DNA from: an uncultured Candidatus Saccharibacteria bacterium
GTDB taxonomy: Bacteria > Patescibacteriota > Saccharimonadia > UBA4664 > CAZJNH01
Direction: 5' to 3'
Assembly: GCA_964478595.1 (NCBI GenBank)
Contig: CAYZIN010000003.1
Span: 1,357 to 65,356 of the forward strand
DNA length: 64,000 nucleotides
A model generated the notes under the pieces. The model searched no databases. It worked only from the letters and a program-made list of their open reading frames with translations, and was not told where the DNA came from. Position numbers and translations under genes: made by a program. Below are positions 5,679 through 40,702 of this stretch, piece by piece (position 1 is the first letter of the stretch; each line of letters opens with the position of its first letter).

Positions 5679-8600
5679 ATGTCCGGAGAGGGAATTAGTC
5701 CGGACGCAGGGGGTGAAGTAACAGGGGCTTTTTCGAGTCCAGATTTGGCGACGCCAGCCCCCGACGCACCGCACAGAAATCCCGAGCCGGGTACAGTAAT
5801 TCACCCTAATGGGCTGGAGGTACATCTGGTCGGCGCCGATGCTAATGCCCGCGCGCGGGACGAAGCTGATCGCCGAGTAGATAGTGAAGTAGCCGAAAAA
5901 GGTCTTTTGACTAGAATCTGGAAGGGCAACCTTGCCAAAGATTATTACTCGATGAAGTACGAGAGGGAAGAGCGCGCCAAGATAGAAGCGGCCGGCACGC
6001 CGTTTCTAAATGAAGAGGAAGCCACTAAAACCATCGAACGCTTTGCCAGCGAAGCCGAAAGCATGGTCGACACCGAAGCCGGCGAGAGTAAGGTTGAATT
6101 GTCTGAATTGCCCGGCGGCAATGAATTAAAGGATCAGTTTAAGGCTCTTATCAGGGAAGTGGCCGAAAAAGACATGTCCCGGCCAGCGTTTGAACAAGAA
6201 AAAACTAGGCTTATTAACGAAGTAGCCTCCAAGAATCCGGAGTTAGCCAAAGCCGGACTCCAATACGCCGATAACATCGAAAAGATTGCCGAACAAGTCG
6301 AAGCTAGGGTCGAGGCCGGCGAGGTTCTGGATAATTTATTGGCGGAGACGAAGATTTATCTAGACCGCGCTCGTGCCGGTGTTCGGACCGAGGCTCAGTA
6401 TGGCGCGATCGACCGCGTGTTCGAAAAGATTCGCAGTCACGGCCTTAGCGCGGTGGCAAATGAAGGAGTTTTGGCTACCGCTATTTCAGTTGGCTACACA
6501 GCGGCTCGCTGGAGCGGCCGACGAGCAGTAGCAGTAGTAGGCAAAATGGCGATTCCTGGAATTTCCAGTGGAATTTTAGCCGGCATGCGTGAAAACAAAT
6601 TCATGAAAGATGAACGTCGTCGTCACAATCGTGAAATGGCCGAAGGTATGCAAACTACCGAAGCGGCGTCGCGGCGGCGGATCGAGCTTGAAAACGTTCG
6701 CTATGAAACAGCATCTAGTAAAGATTTAGTCGACGCCCTGAATTCATCGTTGTTTGAAACCGACCCCGAAGGTAAGAGGGTCGAAAGGGATCTTGGTGGA
6801 GACGAATTGGTTGATGCTATGCACTTGGTGGCAGAGATCGATGCTCGTCGCCAGTTATCTAACCGAATGAGAATTGATCTGATTACTTTTAGCGACAAGA
6901 CTACGGTCGAGCAGGAGCGGTTTGAGCTTTATAAATCGGTATCCGAGGCGAAGACTATCCTGGCCAAGCAATTTGAGGCTGGGGACGACACGTTTAAGGC
7001 TGAAACTTTGGGAGATAGTACTTTTGCAGATGCGCTGGCTAGTTTGAGATATATTGAGGTTTCTAATCTCGGAATACATATTGAGCAACAAGACCGAGCG
7101 TTTGATCATTTACGGCGGGTAGAGGTTGCTAAGGCCGCTGCCAAAGGAGTTTTGATCGGAGCGACGATCGGCCTGATCGCGCAAGAAGCAACCTCCTTCT
7201 TGCGGGCCGACCAGACTGGACTTCTCGAACACGCGCTTCATCACGGCGGAAATTCCGAGCGCGCTCATCAAACCCTGCTGCTTAGTATTTTTGGTCGTCA
7301 CGAAGTTGGCCACCTAAGTGCTCACGATGCGCTGCCTGGCGGCAAGGGTGAGGTACAAATGCCCAAAGGCGTGAGCTTAACTCATGACGCCAATGGCAGC
7401 TTTAGCCTGCACGACGGTGGTAAAGAAATTGCCCATGGTTTGAAGTTTAATAACGGTCAGATGGATCCGGGAACTAAGGCAGCCTTGACCCATGCTGGTT
7501 ACGTTATCCAATCGGAACACGTACAGTCCGGCACCGAGGCGGTCATGCGCACTCCGGATCAGTTAATTGCCCACCATTCGGGAGATTTTAAAACAGTTAA
7601 TCGGCAGCTGTGGTACGACAACAACACTCCGCAATTTGACCGCAATGAACTTGGGTTAGGATGGGCGGGAACGAACGGTCTGGACGCAAATGGCAACTAC
7701 ATTTACTCGGTGGCCCATATGACCGTTGGCGGTTCAACTCACGCCGGGCTTTCGGCTAATGCCCAACAATTGGTGTCCGAGGGCCGTATGAAACTGTTAA
7801 TTTCGGCGTCTCGAGAAACGCAAAACCGCGCGCTAGAGTTGCCGGTGCGTGCCGATGGTACTGTGCTGATTGCCAAAGATAGCTTGGCCGGAAGAGCCTT
7901 TTTCCAAAACTCCGGCTGTCACGCGGTATTTACTGGGAAATTTGCGGAAGTCGCCCAAACTACCAGCAGTAGTAATGGCGTGGATAATTTCCGTATTTTA
8001 GCTACCGAAGTTGGCCCAGGCCAACCGCGCTTTGTTGATCTTAATCCGAAGGACCTATTTATCACCCGTATTCAGTTGCCACCAACCATAGACGTACCGC
8101 CGATTATTCCAATTTTCGGGCGTGAAGCTTTGGGCGAAGCTGAAGCGCCGGAAGACCAAAACGCCAAAACGATTGAAATTCCGGCAGTGAAGATCGAAGA
8201 GACGCAGCCGGAAAAGGAAGCGCCGGAAAAACCGCTAAGTTTATTTGAACTAAAAGAGCGGGCTCGGGTGGCGGTGGGAGAACTCAAAAATAGTAGCGTG
8301 ATTACCCCGGCCGAACGCGAAGTGATCGCAGCCAATATTGGTCGAATTACTCAAAACATGCAGCGCCGAGAGGTAACGCAATCGGATCTGGCCAGTTTGT
8401 CGGCGATGTTTATTAACTTGAACCAAAAAGCTCCAGAGCAAATGCCGGGCAATTTATTGCCTCATTATGTTCAGTCCTTATTGGCGGTAGATAATCAACT
8501 GGCTCGTCAAAAAGAGGTTGGATGGGAGATTGGCGAGTCAGCCCGAACCGTTTATCCGGCTGCGAAACCTTTCGAAACTGGCGAAGCCGATGAGCGTCCG

Positions 8601-9305
8601 AGGCCACCGTCGTTAACTCTGTTTGAGCTTAAAGAACGGGCCCGGCAAGCGGTTGGCGAAATGAAAAATAAGGGCGGGATTACCCCTGCGGAACGAGAGG
8701 TCATCGCTTCAAACCTAGGTCGGATTACTCAACGGATGAACCGGCGCAACGTCACGCAATCGGATCTTTACAGCCTATTTTCAATTTTCACAAAATTGCA
8801 TCAGACCGAACCGGACTTAGTGCCAAGAGACGATTTAGAGTCGATCAACGCTTCGATTTTGGCGGCCGATGGAAAGCTGGGCAGTCAAAAAGATGAGGGT
8901 TGGGAGATAGGCGAGTCAGCGCCGACGGTTCACCCCTCGCCCAAACCCTTCGAGGTTACCGCCAAGCCGGTCTCGCCATCAGTCGATACCGACGCCCCTC
9001 CCAAGACGCCAGGCTATTTAAGCCGTGAAAATTTCCTCAACCGGGCCGAAGAGCGTGGTCGAATTCCAGTTGATGTTGATGCCTCACCCGAAGCCGCTCC
9101 ACCCACAGATGTTGATGCAACTCCTGCTTCGCCGGAGGAAGAGCCTGAAGTTAAAACCGGCCCGGCGATTTGGCGCAATAACGACGCCGACCTGCCGGTT
9201 GAAGTTGAGGGTTTCGCTGGAACGCGTGACGGGCGAGCGTACGTCAATGTCCTCGGTAGTGCCACGGCATTGCCACTTGATGAAATTGTCTACCCCGAGG
9301 GTTAG
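5679..9305 (+). CDS. Giant (1208 aa) membrane-anchored protein with coiled-coil N-region, two tandem 125-aa repeats and an acidic Pro-rich C-terminus
   Basis: The reading frame is long and uninterrupted. Hydrophobic helices lie around aa 265-310 and 490. There is an internal tandem repeat (PxSLxLFELKERAR...GWEIGESA) and a DVDASPEAAPPTDVDATP C-terminal tail. Confidence 0.7.
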   Translation: MSGEGISPDAGGEVTGAFSSPDLATPAPDAPHRNPEPGTVIHPNGLEVHLVGADANARARDEADRRVDSEVAEKGLLTRIWKGNLAKDYYSMKYEREERAKIEAAGTPFLNEEEATKTIERFASEAESMVDTEAGESKVELSELPGGNELKDQFKALIREVAEKDMSRPAFEQEKTRLINEVASKNPELAKAGLQYADNIEKIAEQVEARVEAGEVLDNLLAETKIYLDRARAGVRTEAQYGAIDRVFEKIRSHGLSAVANEGVLATAISVGYTAARWSGRRAVAVVGKMAIPGISSGILAGMRENKFMKDERRRHNREMAEGMQTTEAASRRRIELENVRYETASSKDLVDALNSSLFETDPEGKRVERDLGGDELVDAMHLVAEIDARRQLSNRMRIDLITFSDKTTVEQERFELYKSVSEAKTILAKQFEAGDDTFKAETLGDSTFADALASLRYIEVSNLGIHIEQQDRAFDHLRRVEVAKAAAKGVLIGATIGLIAQEATSFLRADQTGLLEHALHHGGNSERAHQTLLLSIFGRHEVGHLSAHDALPGGKGEVQMPKGVSLTHDANGSFSLHDGGKEIAHGLKFNNGQMDPGTKAALTHAGYVIQSEHVQSGTEAVMRTPDQLIAHHSGDFKTVNRQLWYDNNTPQFDRNELGLGWAGTNGLDANGNYIYSVAHMTVGGSTHAGLSANAQQLVSEGRMKLLISASRETQNRALELPVRADGTVLIAKDSLAGRAFFQNSGCHAVFTGKFAEVAQTTSSSNGVDNFRILATEVGPGQPRFVDLNPKDLFITRIQLPPTIDVPPIIPIFGREALGEAEAPEDQNAKTIEIPAVKIEETQPEKEAPEKPLSLFELKERARVAVGELKNSSVITPAEREVIAANIGRITQNMQRREVTQSDLASLSAMFINLNQKAPEQMPGNLLPHYVQSLLAVDNQLARQKEVGWEIGESARTVYPAAKPFETGEADERPRPPSLTLFELKERARQAVGEMKNKGGITPAEREVIASNLGRITQRMNRRNVTQSDLYSLFSIFTKLHQTEPDLVPRDDLESINASILAADGKLGSQKDEGWEIGESAPTVHPSPKPFEVTAKPVSPSVDTDAPPKTPGYLSRENFLNRAEERGRIPVDVDASPEAAPPTDVDATPASPEEEPEVKTGPAIWRNNDADLPVEVEGFAGTRDGRAYVNVLGSATALPLDEIVYPEG
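8232..8960 (+). repeat. Two tandem copies of a repeat of about 375 bp (125 aa) inside the giant gene
   Basis: Copy 1 begins PLSLFELKERARVAVGELKNSSVITPAEREVIAANIGRITQNMQRREVTQSDL. Copy 2 begins PSLTLFELKERARQAVGEMKNKGGITPAEREVIASNLGRITQRMNRRNVTQSDL. Both end in GWEIGESA. Confidence 0.8.
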
Positions 9306-9307
9306 TT

Positions 9308-10348
9308 GTGCCTGAGAAACAGGGACCAGCCGGCCAAGAACACGAATTTCACTCTAGCCTGACTGAGCTGGATATTGCCGAAACGATCGAGCGGATTCCT
9401 GACCAGGAACAAGCTAAAGCTATTGCCTTAAATACTCATACGGCGCTAGAACGTTTTAAAAAAGCCTGCCAGGAATCAGAGCCAGACTGGGCCAATTATC
9501 GCTGCGCGAATTATGACGCCAAATTGCTACCGAGCCTAACGACTTTATACGGTATTAAAGAAGCTGACATTGGTTCGTTGGGCCAGCATATCTACGGCGA
9601 ATTCACGAAGTTTGGCGAACACATGGATCGGCGGAAACAGGCTTTGCCGGCCACGGAGGGGATCGTTAAGCGAATTGAAGGTCAATATCCCTGGTTTTAC
9701 GTGGGTGTCAATGAGGTAGAACGGGTCCGAAGAGGTCTTCGGGAGCGCAATATTGGTCGAATCTACGTTAATCCGCAGCCCCAGAACGTGCCGCGGGTGT
9801 TTGCTGAAATAGTTAATCTTGGAGCAAAAACGCAGATTCCCTTTGAGCTAAAGGCGCGCGGAGTTATGCATTCGGGTTTAAATGAAATTTCCAAAAAATC
9901 GTATGAACGAAAAAACGGCGAGAGAACTATTTTGGCCCGCGACAGAATTGTGGTTTATTTCGACAATCGAGACGAGTCTGGGATGTTAAAAATAATAGAA
10001 GAGCTTGCTGGTTTGCACGGCAAAGAGATGTCTAACGATCGGCCAGATTTTACGATGCCTTTAGGAATTAAAGCTAACGGCCAAAAGGTTCCCGGATTTA
10101 GTTTTGGTGAAGAGCCGAATAAACGCGAAAAAGGTCGGACGGGCTCGTTCTCGAGCCGGCGGGAAGAAATCCTTAGCCTCATCGAACTCGGGGCTCAAAA
10201 GGCTGGACGGCGGGTTTACGAACCTAGTTTTAATATAGACGCTGCGTTCAATCAGGTTGCAAGGCGCGAAGGAATTGATCCAGATAATCCGGCATTTAAC
10301 TTGGGTAGCACTAATTTTCCAGAGATTCGAAAACTCGGTTTTAGGTAG
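9308..10348 (+). CDS. Hypothetical 346-aa protein translationally coupled to the giant protein
   Basis: A GTG start lies 3 nt after the giant-gene stop. No family was recognised. Conserved-looking blocks include RIYVNPQPQN and RIVVYFDNRDESGMLKIIEELAGLHG. Confidence 0.55.
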   Translation: MPEKQGPAGQEHEFHSSLTELDIAETIERIPDQEQAKAIALNTHTALERFKKACQESEPDWANYRCANYDAKLLPSLTTLYGIKEADIGSLGQHIYGEFTKFGEHMDRRKQALPATEGIVKRIEGQYPWFYVGVNEVERVRRGLRERNIGRIYVNPQPQNVPRVFAEIVNLGAKTQIPFELKARGVMHSGLNEISKKSYERKNGERTILARDRIVVYFDNRDESGMLKIIEELAGLHGKEMSNDRPDFTMPLGIKANGQKVPGFSFGEEPNKREKGRTGSFSSRREEILSLIELGAQKAGRRVYEPSFNIDAAFNQVARREGIDPDNPAFNLGSTNFPEIRKLGFR

Positions 10349-37565: not shown

Positions 37566-37642
37566 TATTGCCATAAGCGTTAAATCGGCGTAATATTCTC
37601 GCCATTCGCAGTGGGGCGAAGCACCAAGACATGGGGGAGAGG

Positions 37643-38071
37643 ATGACTAGGCTAAAGCAGTTTGGGGAAGTGGAGTTTCCGGTATCCCGGGAGGACCTAG
37701 CCAAGATCGCTGTCCAGGCAGGGCTGACTGCAGCCGACGGACGCAGAGTTCATACCATTGCGTACCGGCGCCTGCGCAAACTCAAGTACCAATTGGCGAG
37801 GAAGTCGAAGCCAATTTACGTCTACCTCTATTGCCCGAAGGGGTTTTGTGGTGGGGACGCTTGTGAGCGGATTAATGAGCACCTCATCGATGAGAGCTCG
37901 ATGCAGTGGGTGCCTGATCATCCGTCGCAAGGGCCGGTGATGAGCGCCGTGCTGGCTCAATTCCGTCGCTCGGAAGCTGCTAAACGCGGTTGGGAAACTC
38001 GCCGAAGCGTGAAAGCTCGTCGCTCAATCGCCGCCAAGCGAGGCTGGAAGAAGCGCCGGAGGGCGGCATGA
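37643..38071 (+). CDS. Hypothetical basic protein with duplicated AAKRGW(E/K) motif (GC-rich)
   Basis: An ATG is preceded by a GGGAGAGG RBS; the ORF-track start at 37631 is 12 nt upstream. The C-terminal tail is Arg/Lys-rich with an AAKRGWETRR...AAKRGWKKRRR repeat. Confidence 0.4.
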   Translation: MTRLKQFGEVEFPVSREDLAKIAVQAGLTAADGRRVHTIAYRRLRKLKYQLARKSKPIYVYLYCPKGFCGGDACERINEHLIDESSMQWVPDHPSQGPVMSAVLAQFRRSEAAKRGWETRRSVKARRSIAAKRGWKKRRRAA

Positions 38072-38361
38072 AGGCACTATTTCCGGTCGACGAAGCCGAA
38101 CAGATGATGACCATCTACGTTTGGCGCTATCAAACGCCGACCGACAGTTCGCTCGATCCGAGCTTTTGGTGGTACCGCGCGCTGCGTCAACTCTGGCACA
38201 GCCGCAAATGGAGTCGCGACTACGAGCGGATCATTAAACGGGCCGTTGAGCGCAACTACGTTGAGTTCAATCGCCCGTTGGTCAAACCCGAGTTGTTCGA
38301 CCTACTGACCGATGAACTCTGGGCAGACCTGGTCGGCTTTTTCGGCCAAGAGGCTGCGTGA
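38068..38361 (+). CDS. Hypothetical protein, translationally coupled (ATGA) to the preceding ORF
   Basis: An ATG at 38068 with a CCGGAGGG RBS overlaps the upstream stop. The protein is Trp-rich. The ORF-track start at 37990 lies inside the previous gene. Confidence 0.4.
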   Translation: MKALFPVDEAEQMMTIYVWRYQTPTDSSLDPSFWWYRALRQLWHSRKWSRDYERIIKRAVERNYVEFNRPLVKPELFDLLTDELWADLVGFFGQEAA

Positions 38362-38423
38362 ACACCATTCACGTAGCCTCGTTGTTTACAGATCAAAGTT
38401 GGTCTGGTAACATCCTTTGAGTC

Positions 38424-38729
38424 ATGAAAGCAGTTATACAAACAGGCGGAAAACAGTATCTGGTCGAAAAGGGCCAGACTTTAAACGTGGAATTATTGAA
38501 CACGGCCAAAGACAAGGCCGAGTTTGCGCCGCTTTTAGTAATTGACGGCGACAAAACTCAAATCGGCAAACCGACGGTTGAGGGTGTGAAGGTTAAGGCC
38601 GATGTTTTGGGCGAAGCCAAGGGAGATAAGATTAAAGTAATGAAATTCCGTAATAAAAAGCGGATCAAGAAATTGACCGGCCACCGCCAACGCTACTCCC
38701 AAATCAAAATCACCGCCATCGGCAAGTAA
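38424..38729 (+). CDS. rplU: 50S ribosomal protein L21
   Basis: It has L21 sequence (MKAVIQTGGKQY...) and an AAGGAG-like RBS. No rpmA follows. Confidence 0.9.
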   Translation: MKAVIQTGGKQYLVEKGQTLNVELLNTAKDKAEFAPLLVIDGDKTQIGKPTVEGVKVKADVLGEAKGDKIKVMKFRNKKRIKKLTGHRQRYSQIKITAIGK

Positions 38730-38744
38730 CACTGTCCGCAAATC

Positions 38745-38771
38745 AGCGCCTTGAAAAGGCGCTTTTGGTTT
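38745..38771 (+). terminator. Intrinsic terminator after rplU
   Basis: The hairpin is agcgcctt-gaa-aaggcgct, followed by tttggttt. Confidence 0.65.
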
Positions 38772-39331
38772 GCTAAGATTCTGGCCTGTTCTGCTGAAAC
38801 TTGATAGCTGAATTGGTTTGAGTTGACTAAGTTGGCGGATACCTTGAATCGTCATCGCCTCGCAGGAGGTGTGTGACGTTTGTAGGGCAGCGCCCGCTGG
38901 GGGCGGATTTGGCGAATAATCATCGTGGCCATCGCGGTGGTTACATTCGACCCAGTCTCTGTGGAGGACAACGATTGGTTGTCTCGCCGATGTTGATCGC
39001 TTTAGCTTCCTAGCTTGGGTCTGGCTGGCAAGCTTCCACACCGGAAGCCACACGCCCGCAGTAGCCGGCCAGATCCATTTTTTGAGTGAGACGCGCGCCT
39101 CCTTGGTGAATCTCGGGGGAGAGCGCATCATCATGGCCGCGTCTCACTCAATTTTTCGGACCGGCTCTGGCACGGTCCACTGGCTCGGTGCCGAAGAAAT
39201 TGCGGCGGAGCCTTACGCCGCAGGGCCTTCTTGCGGGCACCGAGCCCAGTTTCCCGGCAGCTTTGGGACTTCCCTTTTCCAGGGATCTCCCTGAAGCTGC
39301 CGGAGTTTCACCGGAATAGATACCCGGCCAA

Positions 39332-39364
39332 CCCCCGACCTCACGGTCGGGGGTTTCCTTTTTG
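39332..39364 (+). terminator. Strong intrinsic terminator inside the ORF-free region
   Basis: The hairpin is cccccgacc-tcac-ggtcggggg, followed by tttcctttttg. Confidence 0.65.
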
Positions 39365-39373
39365 ACCGCCCCG

Positions 39374-39402
39374 TTGACAAGCACTTTGGCTGGGAGTAGT
39401 AT
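39374..39402 (+). promoter_or_regulatory. Consensus promoter TTGACA-17-TAGTAT
   Basis: The -35 is at 39374-39379 and the -10 at 39397-39402. No ORF with an RBS follows it. Confidence 0.55.
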
Positions 39403-39408
39403 CTCGTC

Positions 39409-39769
39409 TTGGTGTTGACATTGTGGCCGATGCTCACGGCAGCACTCTCGAGGGATTCGAAAAGCCGCTATTTCGCCCTGCATCTGCGGGTGTCGTGCGA
39501 GATAGTGGGTTCGTTTCTATCACGGGAGAGGGCTTTCGGGCCCGGGTTCGACTCCCAACGGCCACGCTGCAGTAGTTTCCGGCCCAAAGGGGGACGGAAA
39601 AAGGGCGGCAATGCCCACGAGTTTTCCGAAAGGAGTGATAGGTACGATGACCTCTGGTCGCACTCTGTCTGAGGATTTCTATGGGATCAACATCGACGCG
39701 ATCGACGCGACGACGGCGTAGTACACGCCACTTGCAGTCGGAGACCCCGGGGCTATACGCCCCGGGGTC
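39409..39769 (+). ncRNA. Candidate structured ncRNA of about 360 nt with a tRNA/tmRNA-like T-arm motif; identity unresolved (tmRNA-like or tRNA-like Y-RNA-like)
   Basis: The segment is bounded by a consensus promoter and a strong terminator. It contains UUUCGGGCCCGGGUUCGACUCCC (compare the E. coli ssrA 3' region UUUCGGACGCGGGUUCAACUCCC). A 7-bp GUGGCCG/CGGCCAC pair at 39423 and 39560 encloses about 137 nt. A short tag-like frame reads ...INIDAIDATTA*. No convincing protein ORF is present. Confidence 0.3.
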
Positions 39770-39780
39770 ATCCTTTTTAT
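39743..39780 (+). terminator. Intrinsic terminator (11-bp GC stem + T-run) ending the ncRNA unit upstream of parB
   Basis: The hairpin is gaccccggggc-tatac-gccccggggtc, followed by atcctttttat. Confidence 0.7.
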
Positions 39781-39820
39781 AACGCGGTAATGCTAAAATA
39801 CGCTTTAGTAGGAGGTTGTT

Positions 39821-40702
39821 TTGCCAAAAGGGCAGAGTTTTCAGTCTTTAATTCCCACCGATCTAGTCGAGTTGCAGTATGACATAACTGCTTCTGGTGA
39901 CGAGGTTGCTCAAATTGACCCCGAAATTATCGATCCCAATCCTCATCAGCCGCGAAACAATTTTGACGAAAAAGAACTCTTTGCGCTAGCGGACTCAATT
40001 AAACTTCACGGTATTTTGCAGCCGCTAGTTTTAACACCGGCCGGTAACCGTTTTCATTTAGTGGCAGGTGAAAGAAGATTACGAGCGGCCAAAAGCTTAA
40101 GTCTAACGGCGGTACCAGCTATTGTCCGCGACTTTAATGAACAACAAAAGGTTGAGCTGGCCCTAATCGAAAATTTGCAGCGGGCGGAACTTAATCCAAT
40201 CGAAACGGCAACGGCCTACCAAAAATTAATCAGCCAATTTAATCTTTCCCACGCGGAGGTGGCCAGGCGGATTGGGCGAGATAAATCAACTGTGACCAAT
40301 ACCTTACGGCTTTTGGGTTTGCCAGAGCGAGCCAAGGAAGCGCTAGTTAACGGCGAAATTAGTGAAGGGCACGGCCGGGCGATTTTAACTTTGCACGATC
40401 CCGAAAAAAGAGCCGAGCTAGTCGATTTGGTGATCAAAAATCATTACAGCGTCCGCCAAACCGAAGAGTTTGCCAGAAGCTACGGCCGGCACGAACAAGG
40501 CCGGGAGCGAGCCTTTAAACGAGTGGCTGGCTTTAGCGGCGGGGATGAAATCTCCAAGAAATTAACCAAACTGTTGGGCAAAAAAGTCCAAACCCTACCT
40601 ACGGCTGTAGGCGGCCGGTTGGTGATTTATTTTAACGACGAATCAGAACTTGAGGTTTTGGCCGAGGCGATTGAGCGCGGCTGGAAGGGGAAGATTAAGT
40701 AG
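39821..40702 (+). CDS. parB: Chromosome partitioning protein ParB/Spo0J
   Basis: The start is TTG with a GGAGG RBS. It has the ParB box GERRLRAAK and an HTH region. Confidence 0.85.
   Translation: MPKGQSFQSLIPTDLVELQYDITASGDEVAQIDPEIIDPNPHQPRNNFDEKELFALADSIKLHGILQPLVLTPAGNRFHLVAGERRLRAAKSLSLTAVPAIVRDFNEQQKVELALIENLQRAELNPIETATAYQKLISQFNLSHAEVARRIGRDKSTVTNTLRLLGLPERAKEALVNGEISEGHGRAILTLHDPEKRAELVDLVIKNHYSVRQTEEFARSYGRHEQGRERAFKRVAGFSGGDEISKKLTKLLGKKVQTLPTAVGGRLVIYFNDESELEVLAEAIERGWKGKIK

Follow-up and report, generated by a model that had tools for sequence, protein, structure and literature searches.

Bacterial Y RNAs are modular small RNAs in which a stem formed by the 5' and 3' ends and carrying the Ro60 binding site is joined to a tRNA-like domain (PMC4201824; bioRxiv 10.1101/312249). 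YrlA of Mycobacterium smegmatis is cleaved by RNase P and has CCA added, and YrlA and rsr are encoded on one strand, no more than 4 kb apart (PMC4201824). The locus compared here with these RNAs is the gap between rplU, encoding ribosomal protein L21, and parB in a stretch of 64 kb from an uncultured Candidatus Saccharibacteria bacterium (contig CAYZIN010000003.1), hereafter the window, from whose first nucleotide all positions are counted. To our knowledge, tRNA mimics fused to protein-binding helices occur in few systems only, namely transfer-messenger RNA (tmRNA) and Y RNAs, and almost no non-coding RNAs (ncRNAs) have been described in the Candidate Phyla Radiation (CPR) beyond the universal ones.

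The gap, 1091 nt long (38730-39820), probably contains two tandem and independently transcribed genes for predicted stable, structured ncRNAs that form an undescribed, lineage-restricted family. So far this family is known from one subclade of the Saccharimonadia, and it appears likely that its place is always between the rplU terminator and the par promoter. A reading of the nucleotides and their open reading frames (ORFs), here called the sequence-only reading, had proposed two non-coding transcription units in a GC-rich segment. The base composition agrees, with a GC content of 0.58-0.62 over 38900-39600 against 0.45-0.50 in rplU and parB and 0.513 in the whole window, and the layout, conservation and covariation set out below support the two predicted units, listed here with their boundaries (L044 is the related locus with the closest L21).

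38424-38729, + strand: rplU (Pfam PF00829 L21, E 1.9e-30), upstream boundary
38745-38779, + strand: rplU terminator hairpin (38745-38763 plus T-run) overlapping promoter-like site P1 (TTGAAA-17-TAAGAT, TG-extended, 38751-38779), from consensus scan
38786-39364, + strand: predicted RNA of unit 1 (about 580 nt), made up of a 5' domain specific to the window and, 3' of it, conserved module A
39082-39151, + strand: helix H1 (TTGAGYGRG... / ...CYCRCTCAA), forming a perfect inverted repeat of 14 bp; a GGGGCGRA-like motif lies close to the tip
39178-39252, + strand: helix H2 (CTGGCTCGGTGCC ... CTTCTTGCG GGCACCGAG(C)CCAG), conserved more than any other element of the family, from pairing counts in 5 loci
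39254-39327, + strand: hairpins H3 (39254-39303) and H4 (CCGG-loop-CCGG, 39311-39327), with counterparts in relatives recognised by eye, without formal counts
39330-39364, + strand: predicted terminator T1 of unit 1, an 11-bp stem (39330-39355) and a T-run to 39364, from consensus scan
39374-39402, + strand: promoter-like site P2, TTGACA-17-TAGTAT, from consensus scan
39403-39422, + strand: leader of module B (CTCGTCTTGGTGTTGACATT), 20 nt, identical in L044
39423-39566, + strand: tRNA-like domain of module B, from folding, ARAGORN and comparison with L044
39423-39429 and 39559-39565, + strand: acceptor stem, perfect 7 bp, GTGGCCG/CGGCCAC
39431-39444, + strand: D arm, 4-bp stem with GG in the loop
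about 39446-39528, + strand: long arm of about 83 nt in the anticodon-arm position
39530-39543, + strand: variable hairpin
39544-39556, + strand: T arm with TTCGAnT loop
39566, + strand: discriminator G
39567-39742, + strand: window-specific 3' domain of unit 2, containing the 24-codon ORF
39647-39721, + strand: 24-codon ORF (MTSGRTLSEDFYGINIDAIDATTA) behind an AAAGGAG site and just 5' of T2, read from the sequence
39743-39779, + strand: predicted terminator T2 of unit 2, an 11-bp stem (39743-39769; 10 G-C pairs) and a T-run
39791-39820, + strand: extended -10 of parB (TGCTAAAAT, 39791-39799) and its Shine-Dalgarno site AGGAGG (39810-39815), read from the sequence
39821-40702, + strand: parB (Pfam ParB_N and HTH_ParB), downstream boundary

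Promoter-like sites over 38300-40000 number 3, against 0.8 +/- 0.9 expected, and terminator-like sites 11, against 2.4 +/- 1.7. The terminators that had been read behind rplU, at about 39332-39364 and ahead of parB were all recovered. P2 had been called perfect, which holds for its -35 box; the -10 box matches the consensus at just four of six positions (10/12 overall), and the same hexamers at the same spacing recur in L044 (1134-1162). The extended -10 of parB is kept in L041, L044 and L045, and in L045 the promoter is scored as TTCAAA-17-TAAAAT. Since this conserved promoter lies downstream of the terminators, the RNAs do not appear to be parB leaders, and a cis-regulatory leader or riboswitch of parB was rejected on the grounds that the extended -10 separates T2 from the Shine-Dalgarno site. 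On the + strand, unit 1 folds with a minimum free energy of -299.7 kcal/mol (z -9.85 against shuffles) and unit 2, of about 370 nt, with -167.4 kcal/mol (z -5.2), the minus-strand folds being weaker (z -6.8 and -3.5, respectively). Folding and covariation had been proposed as checks by the sequence-only reading, and both favour it: the two units fold far better than shuffled sequences, and base-pair covariation across relatives is found in parts of each.

The top ParB and L21 homologues all belong to Saccharimonadia. A contig search with the ParB sequence as query gave no close relative (best match 48% identical), and nhmmer of the segment against the loci recovered in this way matched only Logan contigs of the same organism. 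Loci were ordered by L21 identity to the window: L050-L055 (72-74%), L047 (74%), L046 (79%), L045 (81%), L041 (85%) and L044 (90%). L035-L037, found through ParB homologues, which yielded distant relatives only (L21 identity 58%), have the gene order FtsW, hypothetical gene, L21, glycosyltransferase, ParA, ParB, signal peptidase, LytR. In L050-L055, rplU is followed after about 98 nt by parA-parB, and this short spacer consists of the rplU terminator and the par promoter only. L041, L044, L045, L046 and L047 carry an ORF-free insert of 0.35-0.5 kb at the same point as in the window, so that, in the loci compared, a structured insert of 0.35-1.1 kb is confined to one subclade. The insert of each relative starts with a promoter-like site (TTGACA or TTGACC, 17 nt, TAnnnT), often within the rplU terminator stem, and in those loci where the sequence reaches far enough (L041, L044, L045 and the window) it closes with a strong terminator followed by the conserved par promoter TTCAAA-17-TAAAAT. 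The transcription-unit layout is thus conserved across the subclade, whereas most of the insert sequence is not. The overlap of terminator and -35 box also occurs in L041 (5314-5342), L045 (1431-1459) and L047 (1652-1687); the -35 box of the following promoter (TTGACC) sits within the rplU terminator stem, a compact arrangement that is kept across the subclade.

Directly 3' of the insert lies parA in L045 and parB in L041, L044 and the window. The window's parB has no parA upstream, while in relatives the order is parA-parB; no ParA is detectable across the 64-kb window. The parA gene is also missing at the L041 and L044 loci, and L045 retains it after the RNA insert.

Module A, the part of unit 1 common to relatives, is its 3' half (about 39075-39364). 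In the 4 loci counted for H1, none of the 44 cells of its 11-bp outer stem is unpaired, and 4 positions carry double changes. For H2, the 14 outer pairs are standard in all 70 cells of 5 loci; they include 2 compensatory pairs (U-A to C-G) and 3 pairs with G-U-type changes, and sliding the partner strand by 1-3 columns lowers pairing to 23-47%. Short motifs recur in both helices, GGGGCGRA in H1 and CUUCUUGCG in H2. The G-U pairs of H1 and H2 would be A-C mismatches on the opposite strand, which places the constraint on a + strand RNA. Model R1, which scores 87.5 bits at the window's H2, found no second copy, and the H2 covariance model matched syntenic copies only in 200 kb of Saccharimonadia DNA that included the whole window.

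The conserved portion of unit 2 is of another kind. The stretch 39374-39568 (P2, the 20-nt leader and the 144-nt domain) is about 80% identical, over 186 aligned nt, to the sequence directly after rplU in L044; this is level with the rplU coding sequence (82% nucleotide identity), and the adjoining spacer is unalignable. The similarity stops right after CGGCCACGC, just past the acceptor stem. The D stem differs at all positions yet pairs in both loci (TGCT/AGCA in the window, GCTC/GAGC in L044), and the long arm, highly conserved in sequence, has one A-U pair replaced by G-C as well as several G-U-type changes. The T-loop, TTCGACT or TTCGATT, sits on a stem of 5 bp in L044 and of 3 bp in the window. 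A 12-nt insertion in the window forms a UUCG-capped hairpin exactly at the site of the class II tRNA variable arm. The sequence-only reading had considered the second unit, at about 360 nt, the more RNA-like; in the comparison the more widely conserved core proved to be that of unit 1 (H1 and H2), and what is conserved of unit 2 is the tRNA-like domain of about 145 nt with its leader rather than the entire unit.

Module B has the 7-bp acceptor stem, D arm with GG and T-loop of a tRNA, though with a T stem of 3 bp in the window; in place of an anticodon arm with a 5-bp stem, a 7-nt loop and a conserved anticodon it carries the arm of about 83 nt. Deleting the long arm in silico is enough for ARAGORN, run with its defaults, to call a tRNA from the window element. 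Forced intron models give anticodon AUC in the window and AAG in L044, and an alternative inner fold with anticodon CUA requires an acceptor stem with 2 mismatches. A decoding tRNA was rejected on account of these different anticodons and the mismatched CUA fold, and an amber suppressor because TAG is the commonest stop codon in the window (20/50). In L044, ARAGORN by default calls an alternative tRNA-Pyl(CUA) at 1246-1316, which uses an inner GCGGATG as 5' strand of the acceptor; the same fold appears in the window (39487-39566) at lowered thresholds only. This alternative may compete with the main fold, or it may be what is left of a tRNA half that was once duplicated. At the same place L047 has a 71-nt tRNA-like element, scoring 42 bits against the Rfam tRNA model and negative with ARAGORN; its acceptor stem is bulged, and U33 is missing from its anticodon loop.

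Module arrangement differs among the loci. The H2 helix of L044 is long-range, being formed by the module B leader CUUGGUGUU and, 330 nt further 3', GGCACCAAG; both the tRNA-like domain and H1 lie inside it. L047 has a local H2, placed after its tRNA-like element. In the window, modules A and B lie in separate units with their own promoter and terminator each, completed by the window-specific 38786-39075 and 39567-39742, and the leader of module B (39403-39422) pairs in the minimum free energy fold with a different downstream segment, 39685-39694. These differences imply that the family is modular and rearranges fast.

No Rfam family is present in the 64-kb window at gathering score, nor any tRNA gene. 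At E up to 10, on a 1.35-kb region and on 181 nt around module B, Rfam returned noise and a local T-arm match to the tmRNA model near module B (7-14 bits; 7.3 bits in the window). ARAGORN by default found no tRNA or tmRNA in the window; when introns were allowed or thresholds lowered, its calls were sub-threshold or overlapped one another. The sequence-only reading had suggested tmRNA or RNase P RNA as possible identities, and neither survived these searches. A tmRNA was rejected, pair 3-70 being G-C, the default ARAGORN call being absent, the calls at -ps60 to -ps80 being spurious and overlapping, and the Rfam match being local to the T arm. The RNase P, signal recognition particle and 6S RNA models of Rfam had no match on the 1.35-kb region (E up to 10) or in 4 relatives (E up to 1), and the close lineages L050-L055 have no RNA at all at this spot. 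Nothing was found in the literature on tRNA-like or structured RNAs of CPR bacteria or Saccharibacteria at this locus. A repetitive extragenic palindrome or miniature inverted-repeat transposable element was also rejected, the segment being single copy in 64 kb and the H2 matches being syntenic only. BLAST of the segment against phage and plasmid collections gave no match, nor did the module B pattern in viral collections. The H2 pattern gave one chance match in a high-GC phage ORF in viral collections and two inside a high-GC membrane-protein gene in metagenomes.

Several explanations other than RNA genes can be advanced for the segment. It could code for small proteins or hold the frameshifted remains of parA, a glycosyltransferase gene or rpmA, given that parA and a glycosyltransferase gene occupy the corresponding position in relatives and that the 24-codon ORF has a Shine-Dalgarno-like site. 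The ORFs of the gap are mechanical only (199 and 111 aa on the - strand; 87, 70, 50 and 36 aa on the + strand), a Pfam scan of four of them gave no match, and tblastn with ParA, glycosyltransferase and L27 detected no remnant in the segment, the best hit (E 0.13, 37 residues) lying inside parB itself; the neighbouring small proteins were equally negative by tblastn against the segment. The 24-codon ORF has no counterpart in any relative, and the mismatches of module B between the window and L044 (16, 12 and 9 by position) show no codon periodicity, all of which makes a coding origin very improbable. The earlier statement that the segment has no ORF with a recognisable product therefore stands, the sole ORF with a Shine-Dalgarno site not being conserved; so does the absence of rpmA behind rplU, no L27 gene being detected by tblastn anywhere in the 64 kb, and a decayed rpmA or phage gene, named as a possible refutation, was found neither by Pfam and tblastn nor by phage BLAST. 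A DNA-level element, such as a parS centromere or a replication origin, is suggested by the adjoining parB and the many inverted repeats; with no parS-like site of up to 3 mismatches anywhere in the window, no DnaA box or cluster in the segment, a GC-rich composition without an AT-rich unwinding element, and G-U pairs and variable loop lengths that point to RNA hairpins of one strand, it is scarcely credible. The region could instead act in cis, its stacked terminators and promoters isolating the par operon from the highly expressed rplU or attenuating read-through, as would suit the constant position between rplU and parA/parB and the promoter overlapping the rplU terminator. This is improbable as well, though less so: about 98 nt suffices for insulation in relatives, parB retains its own promoter 3' of T2, and about 1 kb of conserved, covarying helices with a tRNA-like domain would be superfluous for such a role.

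A more serious alternative is that of a decaying or selfish non-coding insert without present function, made of a former tRNA gene with structured spacer or of mobile-element debris. It would account for the absence of the insert from nearby lineages, the different module order in the window and L044, the large lineage-specific parts and the defects of the tRNA-like elements as tRNAs. Logan contigs L001 and L002 of the same organism (SRR9179562) also break on both sides of a stretch made up of P2, module B and a further 55 nt or so, ending at 39374 and resuming at 39624. The breaks suggest an assembly-graph branch, caused either by a repeat located elsewhere or by variation between strains; near them, at 39357-39376 and 39585-39604, lie imperfect inverted repeats. 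Such an insert nonetheless seems unlikely to us, since every lineage whose contig covers the relevant part of the insert has kept near-consensus promoters and strong terminators, H1 and H2 are 100% paired with compensatory changes, and module B with its leader is as conserved as the rplU coding sequence. Moreover, no portion of the segment is repeated within the 64-kb window, the 24 related loci contain no second copy, phage, plasmid and viral collections give no match, and no transposase or integrase adjoins the segment. The RNAs could, alternatively, be bacterial Y RNAs of the Yrn1/YrlA type, with H2 as Ro60/Rsr-binding helix and the tRNA-like domain as effector module. They share with Y RNAs the modular combination of a closing helix and a tRNA-like domain, which in L044 is enclosed by the helix of leader and downstream strand; the 5' strand of the window's H2 contains GCCGAAG, fitting GNCGAAN0-1G, and a GCUYGGUG/CACCGAGC helix resembles the termini of M. 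smegmatis YrlA (from the primers in PMC4201824). Both sequence resemblances are post hoc, having been noticed after the fact. At the GNCGAAN0-1G site L041 has GCCGAAU and L045 GCCGGAG; L044, L046 and L047 lack GNCGAA, and by chance alone the motif should turn up some 0.5 times per kb. No TROVE/Ro60 protein was found among the 20 largest ORFs of the window, nor by tblastn in the window or the compared loci, the H2 model has no match beside the Ro genes of two phages, and the RNAs here are 2-4 times longer than Y RNAs. We consider this identity rather doubtful, even though the silence of Rfam does not exclude a YrlA-type RNA, since Rfam 15 at gathering score flags none next to phage Ro genes either. 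One such case is a 360-nt gene-free stretch after the Ro-like gene of Mycobacterium phage Khaleesi (L057, 4617-4978), where a YrlA-type RNA is expected and Rfam 15 is silent.

Some features of the data also weigh against two genes for structured ncRNAs. The promoters and terminators are consensus matches only, from which transcription is inferred, and the comparison covers six related loci only. The H2 shuffle control was only moderately exceeded (10/500 shuffles), because most H2 pairs never vary. Module B has a single true orthologue (L044), besides the L047 analogue, so that its fold rests on few substitutions. The window-specific 38786-39075 and 39567-39742 have no homologue. The order of module A then B in the window, against B fused into A in L044, indicates fast rearrangement, which could also fit a selfish or decaying element.

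If the two units are indeed RNA genes, the tRNA-like domain would be recognised by tRNA-maturation enzymes (RNase P, a 3' nuclease and the CCA-adding enzyme), as suggested by the intact acceptor/T-arm minihelix and by the end of homology at the discriminator, and maturation would release or stabilise a tRNA mimic of about 145 nt. H2, a bulged helix conserved in sequence beyond the needs of pairing, would be a protein-binding site, and the RNAs, instead of serving as mRNA leaders, would be scaffolds or decoys with protein bound to them. A bolder and tentative possibility, to which we give perhaps one chance in several, is that of an undescribed modular class of CPR RNA, in which H2 cooperates with a tRNA mimic whose 'anticodon' arm is extended and conserved, the whole being a Ro60-independent counterpart of Y RNAs, or in which the mimic is charged or handled by tRNA enzymes outside translation. 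Saccharibacteria genomes are about 1 Mb and densely coding. A kilobase given to two strongly promoted structured RNAs is, for this reason, unlikely to be idle. If true, this would be a third independent design of tRNA mimic, found in CPR bacteria, widening the repertoire of tRNA mimicry and providing a handle on the RNA biology of the lineage. The locus also shows how a predicted RNA gene family has entered a single chromosomal site, been duplicated and been reordered there, with loss of parA from the site in several of these lineages.

Elsewhere in the window, the region between ftsW and rplU (37631-38361) contains two overlapping GC-rich ORFs of 146 and 123 aa without Pfam match, the first of which ends C-terminally in a repeated basic motif (AAKRGWETRR / AAKRGWKKRR). 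Small hypothetical genes fill this slot in every relative. In L052 (3531-4001; also in L053 and L055) 470 nt between ftsW and rplU have no called gene, and the stretch reads like an uncalled or frameshifted small hypothetical gene, unlike an RNA. A 1208-aa protein without Pfam domain (5679-9305) is followed by a protein with a HopA1 effector-family domain (9308-10348; E 9e-10). Translation genes in the window include IF-2, S1, RF, the His-, Ile-, Lys- (class I) and Ser-tRNA synthetases and another class II synthetase.

With the large structured RNAs OLE, ROOL, GOLLD and raiA, the RNAs predicted here share a GC-rich, heavily paired character, a conserved core with variable periphery and an ORF-free intergenic position; they differ in being a smaller family without Rfam match, from six loci of one CPR subclade. 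GOLLD and ROOL are frequently found beside tRNAs or contain them. With tmRNA the element shares a TTCGAnT T-loop in a tRNA-like domain whose anticodon arm is replaced by a long helix; in the window, a short ORF also lies downstream. In contrast to tmRNA, the element has G-C rather than G-U at pair 3-70, a real D stem and both acceptor strands within 145 nt, and the downstream ORF has a Shine-Dalgarno site and ATG of its own and is not conserved. The mascRNA of MALAT1 is likewise a tRNA-shaped module within a longer ncRNA, with leader-trailer pairing flanking the tRNA-like fold (PMC8457004), and excision by RNase P or RNase Z would define the RNA ends; it is eukaryotic and unrelated in sequence, and processing of the present element is inferred only. 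In its order of arms (D, long arm, T) the window element agrees with what is described for Yrn1 of D. radiodurans, and L044 has in addition the closing-helix topology. YrlA, known from Salmonella, Mycobacterium and phages, is permuted (T, AS, D), and its acceptor-like stem is closed. The RNAs differ from Y RNAs in their length (350-580 nt against 100-200 nt), in the lack of a Ro60/TROVE gene near the window locus and in a GNCGAA motif that is not conserved in the family. They resemble them in the modular plan of a closing helix and a tRNA-like domain with T and D arms, and may work like a Y RNA rather than being Y RNAs.

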